64,000 nt of DNA from positions 144,522,001-144,586,000 of the forward strand of contig OZ024743.1 of assembly GCA_964016885.1 (NCBI GenBank). The letters run 5' to 3'. Origin of the DNA: Eledone cirrhosa (taxonomy: Eukaryota). The notes beneath the pieces were generated by a model. The model had not been told where the DNA came from, ran no database searches, and saw only the letters and a program-made list of their open reading frames with translations. Positions 21,750-61,387 of the stretch are shown here, in pieces. Position 1 is the stretch's first letter; each line of letters opens with the position of its first letter. The translations under genes were made by a program, and so were the position numbers.

Positions 21750-21860
21750 TTGATCCATGTAGTAGCAATCCATGCAAGAACGGAGCTAAATGTACAAACA
21801 AAGGAAATAAATTCCAATGTGAATGTCTTCCAGGTTACAGAGGAGACGACTGTTCCATTG
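21750..21860 (+). CDS. Array EGF exon 1 (RGD)
   Basis: ctttcAG|TT GAT CCA ... ATT G|GTCAGT; (V)[36 protein letters not shown]. Confidence 0.92.
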
Positions 21861-24180
21861 GTCAGTATTGTAAATCATAGTGATGCACTAAAAAGTGAAT
21901 AAAAATGTCGCATATTCATATAGAAAGATTTCACATGTTGTCTTTATATTTATATCTATATATATATGTGTGTGTGTATGTATGTATATGTATAGTTCTA
22001 TACATGTGTTTATTTATATATATATATATATATATATATATATATATATATATATATATATATATATATATATATATATATATATATATATATGTATATA
22101 TATATATATATATATATATATATGTATGTATAAATATCTATATCTATATATACCTATATATATAGTTTTATATAGTAAGGTGCATTATTGGTTGTGTAAA
22201 ATGGTCCAATAAATTTATGTTAGCAATATTAAGTTCTCTACGCTTTTGTATATCTCCAATTCTGTTCAAGGGAACAGCTAGATGATGAGAAAAATAACGA
22301 TGTTCTCTCACAGAATTCATTCGGAATTTAAGGATAGGTGGTATAATCACCGCCCTACCTTTAATAGATTAGATTTAAAAAAAATAGCACGGCACTTTCT
22401 GAATTAGTCTAGAAGCTTAAATATCAGAATATAGAGCACTCCTTATCCTGGTGCATAGTTTGCTCAGCCCAACATTATGACGGCAGCACTGGCGTCTGCA
22501 ATTTATGTGTAGCTGAAACCTTTAATATTATTAGAAGCGGCCCCCATTAATTAATAGGAGAGCTGATTTTTTCAGCAACTGCCAACATAGAACCTCGAAA
22601 ACTTTCCGCAGGATTTTTGGAAGGTAACCTACCACTAACTCTTCCCTCTCTACTTTAGCCATAGAGTTCTCTCAATAAACAGACAGTCACACACTCAGGT
22701 AGTTAGACGGCTAAGATTGTTTGCGCACTTACAAACGATAATCGGCCTGTTTCCACGGAGTTCTCACAGCTGAGTGCACTTTTTTAGAATACCTAGCTAG
22801 TAAATAGTTAGATTGATTACACACTTAGAATACCTAGTTAGTAATTGATTGCACCCAGAGGCATGACCGATTACGCGCACCTATCTTTACTTTAAGATAC
22901 CCTAACAATTGAGTTCTCTCAGTTGGGCTATAGCTAGTCGTAATACACACTTAGTTAGGACCAGTTACGCTCTCTTTACATAACTCTACACACAGTACCT
23001 GTTTCCTTTAGACATTGAGCTCCCACAATTGCGACTGTCACGTCCCTACCGATTGAACACTACACTAGGTCTTGATCCGTGATCATCTAACCATGGAGGA
23101 CTCACTGTTACGGATTGAACAATAATACTTACACACCATTAATGGGCCTACACACATCCTCTGGATTTTACTATCCTGTGTTTTTTTACTTCACCTTCTG
23201 TGTTGGATAACACACCTCCAACACTCAAACAACTATCTTAAAAGTTCATTGGCCCATTTGACGGGAAATCGCACTTACTGACGCATCTACCCAATACCCA
23301 ACCCTACACGGAGCCCCTGCTGGCCTACATTGTGGTTGCTTGCACGTACAGCACGTACAGATTTGGTGAGTCGGATTCTCAATGGGACTGCGGTACATAC
23401 TGAGTTCGATATGAGCTGATTGCTTGCTCTTCACATGGATGTGTATATACCCAGACATACCATTTTTTGGACGATACGGCTGTGTATATACCATAACATA
23501 CTCTTGAGGATATCGATGTTACAATTCAATCTATACACGTATAGCAGAACACTGAACTAAACTTACTTGCTTGTGTGTGTGTGTGTGTGTGTGTGTGTGT
23601 GTGTGTGTGTGTGTGTGTGTGTGTGTGTGTGTGTGTGTGTGTGTGCGTGTGTGTGTGTGTGTGTGTGTGTGTGGTGGGTATGGAGCGTTTGTTAACCCAA
23701 TATTTCCAATTTACATCGTCAAATTGAGATTTGACCAATGTAGCATCTGTTGTTTTGTGAACTAACTTTCGGATAATGTTGTGTTGGTCCAGGCTTATAT
23801 TTGTTTTTCTTTTCTGACATCGCTTCGGTGTGTGTGAGAGTGTGTGTGTACCCACCCACACTAACTGTGACCTTTATAATTCTACAGGTTTGATACTGTG
23901 TTGATGTGTGTATATATATGTATATATTTTTTTCTTTGACCTCGAGCCGGTGTATGTTGGTGTGGAGTGTGTGTGTACCCACTCACATTAAGTATATCCC
24001 TACAGATTTGATTGATGTCCAGCGTCTTTTGCAGCGATAGAATTCTGACAACTTTTATGACCTCAACTGAAGTTAATAGCAGTCGCCGTGTCTCTCACTT
24101 GTGTGTCTTCATATGAGGGAATGGATTCTGTGAGAGAACATAGTTATTTTTCTCCCTCATATCAAGAATTTTAAGACAAC

Positions 24181-24268
24181 TCATTTTCACCTGATGAGAT
24201 CAGTGATAATCGATCACGGCTTCACAATTGATCTATCTCTTATTGAAACATGTGTCGTGATTAAATGA
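24181..24268 (+). ncRNA. Type I minimal hammerhead-like motif with intact core (also 38248-38335)
   Basis: UCAC-CUGAUGA-(stem II GAU..AUU)-GAAA-C-AUGU-G-UC-GUGA; stem I UCAC/GUGA extended by CAUUU/AAAUG. Confidence 0.65.
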
Positions 24269-25056
24269 TTGGAATTTTACCTTGCCTTCGGATATACCTA
24301 TATATATATATATTTATTTAAAATGTATCTTCGACATTGCTGTATACTTATATGTGTGTGAAGTTCGTATATCTAAAGATATACAGTATGATTAATAAAT
24401 AAATATTCTGAAAGCTCAGCTATGATTAGAAGGCTCGCGGCAAGTGCCGTCTAGCAGAATATAACATAAGCAGAGGAGGATATTAGTCTGTGGATTTTGA
24501 ACTTAATTCTTCACACCAGGACAATGTTTCCTCCTGCAAACTGCTGGATTTAAGACAGGCGAAAATATATACTTTTTTCGTCTGTGTAGTTGGGCTGATT
24601 AGCCTCATTTACATACGAAGCTGTGTAAGTTGCCTCAAGGTAAAATAGAATTAAAATTTACCTATGGCATAGCTGTATACATGTATTTATGTGAATTTTA
24701 TAAATATTTAGATATACAGTATATTTAATAAATAAACATTTTAAAAGCTCAGCTATGAATAGAAGGCCGACTGCAAGCGCCGTCTAGTGGAATCATGCAG
24801 TAGCAGCGGAGGACACATGTCTACACATTTCGAACTTAATGGTTCTAATCAGGACAATGGTTCCTCTTGCTTATTGCTATAATAAAGGACATAAAAGACG
24901 TAATACTGTCAATGATGGACTGCTATTACGAATTTATTTTACGTTTTACCAAATATATTAGTGGATCATTGCATGATTAATTGACAAGAGATAGGTGTGA
25001 TATTATTTAGTGATTAAGAGAGATATATAAATAATCTAACTGTTTTGTTCTTTCAG

Positions 25057-25167
25057 TTGATCCATGCAGTAGCAATCCATGCAAGAACGGAGCTAAATGT
25101 ACAAACAAAGGAAATAAATTCCAATGTGAATGTCTTCCAGGTTACAGAGGAAACGACTGTTCTATTG
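25057..25167 (+). CDS. Array EGF exon 2 (RGN)
   Basis: 111 bp, AG/GT intact, AGA GGA AAC GAC. Confidence 0.9.
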
Positions 25168-59200: not shown

Positions 59201-59489
59201 CGACTGCAAGCGCCGTCTAGTGGAATCATGCAGTAGCAGCGGAGGACACATGTCTACACATTTCGAACTTAATGGTTCTAATCAGGACAATGGTCCCTCT
59301 TGCTTATTGCTATAATAAAGGACCTAAAAGACGTAATACTGTCAATGATGGACTGCTATTACGAATTTATTTTACGTTTGACCAAATATATTAGTAGATC
59401 ATTGCATGATTAATTGACAAGAGATAGGTGTGATATTATTTAGTGATTAAGAGAGATATATAAATAATCTAACTGTTTTGTTCTTTCAG

Positions 59490-59600
59490 TTGATCCATGC
59501 AGTAGCAATCCATGCAAGAACGGAGCTAAATGTACAAACAAAGGAAATAAATTCCAATGTGAATGTCTTCCAGGTTACAGAGGAGACGACTGTTCTATTG
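59490..59600 (+). CDS. Array EGF exon 13 (RGD)
   Basis: 111 bp, AG/GT intact, AGA GGA GAC. Confidence 0.9.
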
Positions 59601-61276
59601 GTCAGTATTGGTATTTATAGTGATGCACTCATAAGTCTATAAAAATGTCGCATATTCATATAGAAAGATTTCACATGGTGTCTTTATATTTATGTCTATA
59701 TTTATGTGTGTGTGTATGTATGTTTATGTATAGTTCTATACATGTGTTTATATATATATATATATATATATATATATTTATATATATATATATATATATA
59801 TATATATATATATATATATATATATATATATATATATATATATATATATATATATATATATATATATATATATATATATATGTGTGTATGTATAAATGTC
59901 TATATCTATATATACCTATATGTATAGTTGTTATATATTAAGGTGCAATATTGGTTGTGTAAAATGTTCCAATAAATTTATGTTAGCAATATTAAGTTCT
60001 CTACGCTTTTATATATCTCCAATTCCGTTCAAGGGAACAGCTAGATGATGTAAAACGGAGTATAAGTATCAAAATAAAATCCGAAGGCAAGGTAAAATTC
60101 CAATCATTTAATCACGACACATGTTTAAATAAGAGATAGATCGATTGTGAAGCGATGATCGATTATCACTGATCTCATCAGGTGAAAATGAGTTGTCTTC
60201 AAATTCTTGATATGAGGGAGAAAAATAACGATGTTCTCTCCCAGAATTCATTCGTAATTTAAGGATAGATGGTATAATCACCGCCATACCTTTAATAGAT
60301 TAGATTAAAAAAATAGCACGGCACTTTCTGAATTAGTCTGGAAGCTTAAATTTCAGAATATAGAGCACTCCTTATCCTGGTCCATAGTTTGCACAGCCCA
60401 ACCTTACAACGGCAGCACTGGCGTCTGCAATTTATGTATAGCTGAAACCTTTAATATTATCAGTGGAAATATGTGTCGTGATTAAATGATTGGAATTTTA
60501 CCTTGCCTTCGGATATACCTAGATATATATATTTATTTAAAATGTATCGTCGACATTGATTTATACATATATGTGTGTGAAGTTAGTATATCTAAAGATA
60601 TACAGTATGATTAATAAATAAATATTCTGAAAGCTCAGCTATGATTAGAAGGCTCGCGGCAAGTGCCGTCTAGCAGAATATAGCAGAAGCAGCGGAGGAT
60701 ATTAGTCTGTGGATTTTGAACTTAATTCTTCACACCAGGACAATGTTTCCTTTTGCAAACTGCTGGACTTTAAGACAGGCGCAAATATATACTTTTTTCG
60801 TCTGTGTAGTTGGGCTGATTAGCCTCATTTACATACGAAGCTGTGTAAGTTGCCTCAAGGTGAAATGGAATTAAAATTTACCTGTCGCATAGCTGTATAC
60901 ATGTATTTATGTGAATTTTATAAATATTTAGATATACAGTATATTTAATGAATAAACAATTTAAAAGCCTAGCTGTGAATGGAAGGCCGACTGCAAGCGC
61001 CGTCTAGTGGAATCATGCAGTAGCAGCGGAGGACACATGTATACATATTTCGAACTTAATGGTTCTAATCAGGACATTGGTTCCTCTTGCTTATTGCTAT
61101 AATAAAAGACCTAAAAGACGTAATACTGTCAATGATGGACTGCTACTACGAATTTATTTTACGTTTTACCAAATATATTAGTAAATCATTGCATGATTAA
61201 TTGACAAGAGATAGGCGTGATATTATTTAGTGATTAACAGAGATATATAAATAATGTAACTGTTTTGTTCTTTCAG

Positions 61277-61387
61277 TTGATCCATGCAGTAGCAATCCAT
61301 GCAAGAACGGAGCTAAATGTACAAACAAAGGAAATAAATTCCAATGTGAATGTCTTCCAGGTTATAGAGGAGAGGACTGTTCTATTG
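61277..61387 (+). CDS. Array EGF exon 14 (RGE)
   Basis: 111 bp, AG/GT intact, TAT AGA GGA GAG GAC. Confidence 0.9.

Follow-up and report, generated by a model that had tools for sequence, protein, structure and literature searches.

Does a tandem array of EGF exons in Eledone cirrhosa, in which Arg-Gly-Asp (RGD) is exchanged for RGN or RGE from unit to unit, encode a tuned series of integrin ligands, or does the exchange record how the exons were copied? We favour the second answer, at a probability of roughly 0.78: the repeat exons would have been homogenised by unequal crossover and gene conversion, with D/N/E representing near-neutral variation at the most tolerant position of the EGF domain and RGD being incidental. 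The array was read within a 64-kb stretch of contig OZ024743.1 (the window), where all features given below lie on the forward strand, and was then extended beyond it in window-equivalent coordinates; the sampling depth is one haplotype per species.

The EGF exon array and its host gene

The tandem exon-intron array occupies 21659..64000 of the window and extends to ~75,000 (window-equivalent); its units, which contain TA and TG microsatellites, measure ~3.4 kb or ~1.7 kb. Each of the 14 array exons in the window is 111 nt long, bounded by AG...GT and of phase 1-1, and codon 32 reads GAC,AAC,GAC,AAC,AAC,AAC,GAC,AAC,AAC,AAC,GAC,GAG,GAC,GAG, giving D,N,D,N,N,N,D,N,N,N,D,E,D,E, exactly the order and coordinates of the sequence-only reading. 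RGD is encoded by exons 1 (21750..21860, with GAC at 21845-21847; Pfam EGF E=3e-10), 3 (28455..28565), 7 (42551..42661), 11 (54360..54470) and 13 (59490..59600), RGN by exons 2 (25057..25167), 4 (31866..31976), 5 (35539..35649), 6 (39124..39234, which also carries N6H), 8 (45945..46055), 9 (49331..49441) and 10 (50999..51109), and RGE by exons 12 (56145..56255) and 14 (61277..61387). Four further units beyond the window end bring the full array to 18, with Asn at residue 32 in units 15 (window-equivalent 64640) and 16 (66558; also G11A and E24G) and Asp in units 17 (71480) and 18 (74208; GAT, also T15I), after which comes a diverged terminal EGF with KGE. RGD is thereby present in 7/18 units. 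The claim that N>H is the only other replacement holds in the window, where the remaining exon differences are indeed synonymous (four variable sites, all silent), but fails over the 18 units, which carry six replacement variants at five codons. Contigs from three runs of one sample, aligned on unit 2, cover the RGN exon type, with no codon-32 change among the variants listed. The repeat also holds an intron ORF, possibly a Penelope-type endonuclease fragment; it gave no Pfam match and matches another transposon-like ORF weakly in pairwise comparison.

Upstream of the array lie VWA exon 1 (7590..8156; 567 nt, phase 1-1, AG/GT; Pfam VWA E=5e-48), with 66% identity to the O. sinensis orthologue protein, and an RGN-encoding EGF exon (9271..9381) whose DNA is ~81% identical to that of the array units. 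A look-up with the VWA exon listed no RNA data set carrying it. These are followed by VWA exon 2 (11330..11896), a recent duplicate of the first, and its RGN-encoding EGF exon (13011..13121); the two VWA-EGF blocks are 98.6% identical across 2.2 kb, and both VWA domains carry the DxSxS MIDAS motif. Past the array, VWD, C8, TIL, TILa/EGF and two PAN-type exons reach ~105,100 (window-equivalent). Domain order, all non-array exons and the downstream neighbour, which matches O. bimaculoides XP_052822699.1, agree in placing the predicted gene in an octopod VWA-EGF(n)-VWD-C8-TIL-PAN family. XP_036356789.1 of O. sinensis and XP_014774721.2 of O. bimaculoides are likely orthologues, sharing VWA, EGF, a homogenised 37-aa EGF array, the terminal EGF, VWD, C8, TIL, TILa/EGF, PAN and PAN-like domains, at 56-81% identity with the array excluded, whereas the recently doubled VWA-EGF block is found in Eledone only. 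Residue 32 is mixed in both Octopus arrays as well, where RGD stands beside RGE and RGK, so the mixing noted in Eledone recurs; the commonest residue is Asn in Eledone but Glu or Asp in Octopus, and position 9 is invariant in the Eledone array, unlike in Octopus. RGD recurs at every other EGF over most of the O. bimaculoides array and in the tail of the Eledone array.

The RefSeq names of these predicted proteins ('Notch homolog 1 isoform X6'/'fibropellin-1' for XP_036356789.1, 'zonadhesin' for XP_014774721.2) are automatic labels. Vertebrate zonadhesin shares VWD-C8-TIL assemblies and EGF, and is described as having MAM domains together with VWD and mucin tandem repeats as its defining features (PMC1325057); the Pfam matches of the two Octopus orthologues include no MAM family, and the name is a misnomer. 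We found no functional study of either protein, and a literature search that did not use the accessions as terms and covered few subscription papers returned nothing on the gene or its RGD pattern. A word-indexed search with a single EGF as query gave no candidate, and an Atlas look-up of the O. sinensis orthologue gave one lead, under 0.9, in a VWA/VWD/C8 cluster. With regard to possible mutually exclusive splicing, the RefSeq isoforms of O. sinensis vary in EGF number, which may reflect real skipping or mis-mapping between near-identical exons. The Eledone protein is likely a secreted scaffold. The N-terminus of the O. sinensis orthologue is hydrophobic, as judged by eye, and searches upstream of the Eledone gene for a signal-peptide exon gave nothing convincing.

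The spliced frame is open through 18 symmetric phase-1 exons, and together with purifying selection and the orthologues this makes it likely, as the sequence-only reading proposed, that the exons code for the tandem-EGF rod of a real protein. The array EGF has six cysteines at 4-5-8-1-8 spacing (Notch-type) and scores 40.6 bits against PF00008 (cut-off 21.5), whereas the calcium-binding EGF family PF07645 reaches 19.4 bits, below its cut-off of 27, and the linker Ile-Val-Asp-Pro-Cys departs from the N-terminal acidic consensus. RGD sits within the canonical 8-residue C5-C6 segment, and the corresponding segment of entactin is two residues longer. A model of an O. bimaculoides 4-mer (pLDDT 87), whose top PDB matches are Notch1 EGFs, places Y29-R30 in the minor-sheet bridge and G31-D32 in a short turn ahead of Cys6, at the level of secondary structure only. 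Tyr29 falls at the Notch-type interdomain packing position, reported to lie four residues past Cys5 (PMC4826273). The hypervariable residue 32 is probably surface-exposed, and the RGD may thus be reachable.

The best functional analogue of such a putative load-bearing EGF rod is octovafibrin (XP_014771937.1), the egg-thread protein of O. bimaculoides, another octopus protein, in which many consecutive non-calcium-binding EGFs of the same cysteine spacing (4,5,8,1,8) are flanked by terminal assembly domains (PMC10336842). It is nevertheless described as the product of a different gene, with a C-type lectin at both ends, 29 EGFs and neither VWA nor VWD, whereas the Eledone gene ends in VWA and in VWD-C8-TIL-PAN; since the ends are not C-type lectins and the accession differs, identity with octovafibrin was rejected. 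The main text of the octovafibrin paper makes no mention of RGD (PMC10336842). By this analogy, the Eledone EGF run would serve as a spacer or as a rod that bears load, in either case without binding calcium. The VWA and VWD-C8-TIL ends would provide for binding or polymerisation within a mucus, a matrix or an egg coat. The family, being octovafibrin-like in design, may interest biomaterials work.

Recombination history of the array

One G/A and one C/G change yield all three residues at codon 32. Unit 7 (42551) is a crossover mosaic whose exon and downstream flank are those of unit 3, with 34/38 of the differences between the two lying upstream of the exon. Unit 10 (50999) is sister to the RGE units 56145 and 61277 except for a short tract over codon 32, such that 6/10 differences fall inside 80 bp (P=0.0006). 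Towards the window end, an ~5.1-kb two-unit higher-order repeat (49523..64000) displays 98.7% identity over 9.35 kb at a 5.1-kb offset, and the units of exons 11 and 13, as well as those of exons 12 and 14, show 0 differences in 1,344 columns. Thus, the D,E,D,E tail arises from duplication of the two-unit repeat, and both RGE units represent a single event. No more than two replacement changes are needed for the order at codon 32; a crossover, a short conversion tract and the two-unit duplication then distributed them. As to a possible import of RGE from the terminal EGF, the latter has both private bases of the RGE units, but another base between them. In O. bimaculoides, D/E travels together with Q/K at position 9 (p=0.02), which is what a duplicated two-unit block predicts.

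Across the array, failures of the four-gamete test climb with distance, from 2/15 pairs at <50 bp to 23/36 at 400-900 bp, and positions 12, 19, 22 and 26 are fixed differences between Eledone and both Octopus arrays. Within-species likeness, mosaic units and higher-order repeats are all present, and the array is a set of concertedly evolving tandem exons. Of the biased conversion once invoked for codon 32, the transfer stands, in that gene conversion and crossover moved the variants, but GC bias shows no sign, with G/C being major at 25/49 W/S sites in an alignment that includes a few questionable columns at its edges.

Intragenic concerted evolution of exon or coding repeats is known from Drosophila dumpy PIGSFEAST and abalone VERL. 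Avian CREMP, in which a run of disulfide-rich modules is linked to VWD and C8 and which is often mis-annotated as zonadhesin-like, is reported to share near-identical tandem modules, homogenisation within species, higher-order repeats and mosaic units (PMC12723725). Unlike PIGSFEAST, VERL and CREMP, the Eledone unit takes in an entire exon together with an intron of 1.7-3.4 kb, and encodes a three-disulfide EGF module. The locus thus shows cleanly how an array of exons evolves in concert, here in an octopod VWA-EGF(n)-VWD family that is so far uncharacterised.

Constraint on the exons and tolerance of residue 32

The array exons are under purifying selection. Replacement variants occupy 6/88 sites compared with 5/20 for silent variants (p=0.029; exon-wide pN/pS 0.27), a depletion of ~3.5-fold relative to silent and intron variants, and in the 14 core units replacement sites are less variable than intron (p=0.008), whereas silent sites are not (p=0.73). 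Codon 32 is the sole replacement codon at intermediate frequency in the 18 units (N9 D7 E2), and to that extent the proposal that it is nearly the only variable residue was sound, but the excess is not beyond chance: the probability that 2/6 replacements fall on one of 36 codons is 0.36, or 0.08 for the three in-window replacements only. An even split such as that of the D/N site is shown by 12/1,212 gap-free intron columns, so that among 88 replacement sites 0.87 would be expected under neutrality and 0.24 at the observed constraint, compared with the one seen. Variation at codon 32 therefore lies within expectation rather than above the neutral level, and the suggestion of diversifying selection is not borne out. 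On leave-region-out trees the D/N site requires 3 steps, which equals the median for 17 comparable sites (1-4 steps), and by a runs test D and non-D follow one another at random over the 18 units (P=0.32/0.84). Glu and Asn are the best-scoring exchanges for Asp in 5/5 matrices checked, Asn tying with Gln in two.

Wider sampling points the same way. In 1,882 distinct unrelated EGFs of equal cysteine spacing, which come from 148 of the 150 best matches, position 32 has the highest entropy of the 36 positions (3.85 bits, 19 residues), while Gly31 is present in 1,822/1,882 and RGD in 6/1,882. A diverged paralogous array in the Eledone genome, with 56 EGFs in the stretch retrieved, has position 32 joint first in entropy (3.51 bits, 16 residues), RG at positions 30-31 in 29/56 and RGD in 2/56. 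Among 18 unrelated proteins with at least 6 near-identical EGFs, position 32 is at intermediate frequency in 6, behind position 24, which varies in 9, and two of these 6 switch between D and N at position 32 without a preceding Arg (EGD8/EGN3 and SGD6/SGN2). Positions 9 and 11 are likewise at intermediate frequency in the Octopus orthologues. Codon 32 is thus largely unexceptional among unrelated EGFs, paralogue and orthologues, the outcome that the sequence-only reading had itself named as fatal, and its picture of a designed 'barcode' finds no support, given a site that is the most tolerant in EGFs and D/N toggles elsewhere that lack Arg.

Position 32 being the freest EGF position generally, the on/off RGD motif most likely emerged as a side effect of the copying of repeats and not as a tuned code. 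RGD arises because Gly31 belongs to the fold consensus and Arg30 is common in the subfamily; a pre-existing Arg-Gly before the variable codon would make the tripeptide appear incidentally, and unequal crossover and gene conversion would homogenise the units while shuffling D, N and E. Selection then likely acts on the fold, perhaps on copy number, and not on the RGD count. More generally, caution is warranted, as RGD arises easily in Gly-aromatic-Arg-Gly-x EGF segments.

Alternative readings of the RGD mixture

Several observations count against near-neutrality. The D/N site is the most scrambled in the array, ranking first for four-gamete incompatibility among the 17 sites that are evenly split (0.53 compared with 0.26-0.43, and 0.54 compared with at most 0.32 in a second run). 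In addition, residue 32 of the orthologous arrays is restricted to D, E, N and K, in contrast to the 16-19 residues accepted elsewhere; the probable exposure of this residue and the persistence of mixed arrays in all three octopods count on the same side. We nevertheless consider it unlikely that the array is a multivalent integrin ligand in which selection holds RGD number and spacing at intermediate values, with RGE and RGN as inert spacers, and equally doubtful that octopods retained the mixture through balancing selection as a nanopatterned adhesion ligand tuned by unequal crossover; were this true, recombination among repeats would be a natural means of setting the valency and spacing of an integrin ligand. 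The four-gamete peak at the D/N site would fit such a ligand, and RGD is mixed with non-RGD units in 3/3 octopods despite four positions fixed differently from Octopus, a coincidence with a chance of 0.07-0.37 depending on the set chosen, non-significant but leaning towards the sequence-only reading. The EGF precedent invoked for nidogen-1 is real: RGD follows Gly-aromatic in an EGF-type repeat of entactin/nidogen-1 and is described as supporting adhesion, which an Asp-to-Glu change abolishes (PMC2119796, PMC2115676), and oyster homologues of RGD-class integrins are reported to bind RGD peptide (PMC7390872). Entactin, however, has a single RGD followed by Gly-Gln (PMC2119796), whereas in Eledone it is arrayed and followed by Asp-Cys6, and the one RGD of Del-1/EDIL3, likewise preceded by Gly-aromatic and functional in adhesion assays, is presented on a protruding 'RGD finger' of its EGF-type repeat (PMC4200221), unlike a motif within a canonical C5-C6 segment. 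Where D and E alternate in O. bimaculoides, through most of its array (runs P=0.03), a two-unit duplication that carried linked changes at position 9 explains the pattern; unrelated arrays toggle D/N without Arg at this most tolerant position, and the RGD content of the arrays ranges from 16% to 60% (7/18 in Eledone, 3/19 and 12/20 in the two Octopus arrays). Indeed, residue 32 is Asp in only 22/57 orthologous units, whereas the adjacent Asp33 is present in 57/57, so Asp32 is not conserved above background as would be expected of an RGD ligand.

Somewhat less probable still is an untuned side activity, whereby some RGD units bind integrins, few suffice and the others drift. Every orthologue seen has at least 3 RGD units, compared with the low counts in the paralogue (2/56) and unrelated EGFs (6/1,882), but with Arg-Gly fixed and an Asp or Glu ancestor, RGD is one base from all states seen except Lys, and its persistence thus needs no selection. 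We regard as very unlikely a constraint on residue 32 unrelated to integrins, in which an acidic side chain completes a metal site (for example, that of the protein's own VWA MIDAS) or sets the charge of the rod, or Asn serves as a sequon, N-x-C being a rare glycosylation sequon. The D/E/N/K restriction, with 47/57 units acidic, and the DxSxS of both VWA domains would suit it; Asn in half of the Eledone units, and the fact that each state is one base from D or E, would not. Finally, there is only a slight chance that the D,E,D,E tail or another part of the array stems from an assembly error, namely a falsely duplicated or merged haplotype segment. In its favour, the pairs 54360/59490 and 56145/61277 are identical over 1,344 gap-free columns; against it, most tested unit pairs show 6-42 differences in those columns, and independent assemblies of the orthologues carry 19-20 core units. 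Discounting the final duplication as spurious would still leave D, N and one E unit.

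The EGF array and its VWA-VWD gene

The 14 EGF exons within the window, each 111 nt long with AG/GT ends, lie where the sequence-only reading placed them, and codon 32, which follows Arg30-Gly31, indeed runs D,N,D,N,N,N,D,N,N,N,D,E,D,E, such that exon positions and residue order were both accurately read. A search of the genome returned 22 matches, and the fetched flanks contain four additional units (codon 32: N, N, D, D) as well as a diverged terminal EGF, bringing the full array to 18 units (N9 D7 E2). The claim that N6H is the only other replacement holds inside the window, but not in the units beyond it, where three more occur (G11A, E24G and T15I).

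Two nearly identical VWA-EGF blocks, the EGF of each carrying RGN, precede the array, and VWD, C8, TIL, TILa/EGF and PAN exons follow it. All 23 exons from the first VWA to the terminal EGF have AG/GT ends and splice into 1,154 stop-free codons. Among the octopod proteins returned by homologue searches, O. sinensis XP_036356789.1 and O. bimaculoides XP_014774721.2 share this domain architecture, are 56-81% identical outside the array and have a matching gene downstream, from which we infer that they are orthologues. The RefSeq names of these octopod proteins (Notch, fibropellin, zonadhesin) are automatic, and a Pfam search of the orthologues found no MAM domains.

The VWA-EGF block (window 7559-13527) is doubled at 98.6% over 2.2 kb, and O. 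sinensis has one block. A near-perfect palindrome (6822-7161; 340 bp, 92%) lies just 5' of the first VWA exon, and a decayed LINE (14050-17050; endonuclease-RT-family match PF14529 below cut-off) occupies the intron between the second block and the array. Three orphan VWA exon copies (90-92% DNA identity), one frameshift-split in tblastn and another truncated, lie inverted 57-72 kb upstream (C4:144449592-144465326, minus strand). The adjacent cluster gene (window-equivalent 136400-185500; VWD-C8-TIL-EGF-VWA-EGF-VWD-C8-TIL-EGF-PAN) matches O. bimaculoides XP_052822699.1. On a different chromosome, a 1.9-kb segment (C1:252782435-252784289) duplicates the final array unit and terminal EGF at 96%, its first acceptor having a TA repeat in place of the pyrimidine tract; it is probably a dispersed fragment.

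Predicted structure and likely function

VWD-C8-TIL assemblies polymerise mucins and VWF, and the gene product is probably a secreted scaffold with a length-variable EGF spacer. Four O. bimaculoides units were modelled with AlphaFold2 from a single sequence (pLDDT 87; pTM 0.48, which leaves the domain orientation uncertain). The model predicts a minor-sheet bridge at Tyr29-Arg30 and places Gly31-Asp32 in a turn preceding Cys6; its closest PDB matches are Notch1 EGF runs. Each unit also has putative sites that fit the consensus sequences for O-glucosylation between Cys1 and Cys2 (codons 3-8) and Asn hydroxylation between Cys3 and Cys4 (codons 14-23). In Notch, the residue four after Cys5 packs against the next domain (PMC4826273), and Tyr29 of the array sits at that position.

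The best analogue is octovafibrin, a separate octopus gene whose 29 non-calcium EGFs, spaced in their cysteines like those of the array, carry load in egg threads (PMC10336842). Two further observations could, but need not, concern the present gene: VWA, VWD and cysteine-rich domains are enriched in O. vulgaris skin mucus (PMC10138644), and a zonadhesin-annotated transcript rises in the oviducal gland of O. maya (PMC8976471). Precedents for the RGD motif include an entactin EGF whose RGD is functional and RGE-sensitive (PMC2119796, PMC2115676), Del-1, which presents RGD on a protruding finger (PMC4200221), and oyster integrins that bind RGD peptide (PMC7390872); by analogy, integrin binding by the array RGD would thus be possible.

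Constraint and tolerance at codon 32

In tallies that count variants rather than events among non-independent units, replacement variants affect 6/88 sites and silent variants 5/20 across the 18 units (p=0.029). The same caveat applies to comparisons with introns, made in 14 of the 18 units (25057-64640; 21750, 66558, 71480 and 74208 were omitted because their flanks are not homologous over full length), where replacement sites are less variable than intron sites (3/88 versus 97/782, p=0.008) and silent sites are not (p=0.73). The array exons are thus constrained.

Among 1,882 distinct EGFs of identical cysteine spacing (1,963 in total, from 148 of the best 150 proteins of a one-EGF HMMER search), position 32 ranks first of 36 in variability, with Gly31 almost fixed. 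In a paralogue on the same chromosome (C4:1281471-1388137; a VWA exon and then 56 or more diverged exons of one EGF each), position 32 is tied most variable across the 56 EGFs in 140 kb fetched and alone in first rank among the first 28; Arg-Gly precedes it in 29/56, with RGD in 2/56. The last fetched units of this paralogue start to look homogenised again. Position 32 also varies in 6 of 18 unrelated proteins with at least six near-identical EGFs. Two of these, XP_039269162.1 (EGD8/EGN3) and one from a metagenome (SGD6/SGN2), toggle D/N where no RGD is possible. For Asp, the top-scoring exchanges are Glu and Asn, each one base distant. Where Arg-Gly is fixed and the Asp after it is tolerant, RGD/RGN/RGE therefore result by default.

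EGF arrays seem to have expanded repeatedly and independently in this VWA-VWD family. The related O. sinensis VWA-VWD proteins P0006 and P0029 have their own, strongly Arg/Lys-rich EGF expansions; the repeats of the orthologue P0020 are acidic.

Origin of the D/N/E pattern

Four-gamete failures increase with the distance between sites, and the units are thus mosaics. Units 54360 and 59490, like 56145 and 61277, show no differences in 1,344 columns, so the D,E,D,E tail is a single D-E pair, duplicated. Ten columns separate unit 50999 (N) from the E units, and six of them, silent and intron changes included, lie inside 80 bp spanning codon 32 (P=0.0006); this cluster is a conversion tract, which supports the view that conversion moved codon-32 variants. 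That the conversion was biased finds no such support, as no GC bias was seen among array variants. From the exon onward, unit 42551 (D) matches unit 28455 (D), whereas upstream lie 34 of the 38 differences between them, which marks a crossover.

The sequence-only reading called codon 32 a barcode, proposed that the array may encode a rod with tunable RGD valency and spacing, and took the three states as suggesting diversifying selection or biased conversion. Its strongest point is that the codon is mixed in both this species and the Octopus lineage: E15 D3 K1 in O. sinensis (19 of 21 EGFs, first and last excluded) and D12 E8 in O. bimaculoides (20 of 27; five N-terminal and two C-terminal diverged EGFs excluded), although positions 9 and 11 are also at intermediate frequency in both Octopus arrays. 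There, D at position 32 goes with residues other than K at position 9 (pooled p=0.0008), so old unit types are likely common to the two arrays, which are therefore counted as a single lineage. The tolerance-weighted chance of shared mixing is 0.07 for the exact site, 0.14 for sites mixed in both Octopus species and 0.37 for either. Also in favour of that reading, four-gamete incompatibility among 17 evenly split sites peaks at the D/N site (0.53 versus 0.26-0.43), although its three parsimony steps equal their median. The site adjoins 71 bp without variation, the longest such run in the unit, in which conversion may start more often. D units are placed randomly along the array (runs test). In 12 of 1,212 intron columns the split is as even as at the D/N site, and therefore one comparable replacement site is expected (0.87 under neutrality, 0.24 at the observed constraint). 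This expectation, the tolerance of position 32 and the toggles lacking Arg argue against a special barcode, and we suggest that the pattern most likely arose by an ordinary mechanism (probability roughly 0.78). Tuning of RGD valency appears improbable.

The long units (3.4 kb; window 22290-24400 and copies) contain a transposon-like segment, also present inverted at about 97,200-99,000, part of which the short units (1.7 kb) apparently lack.
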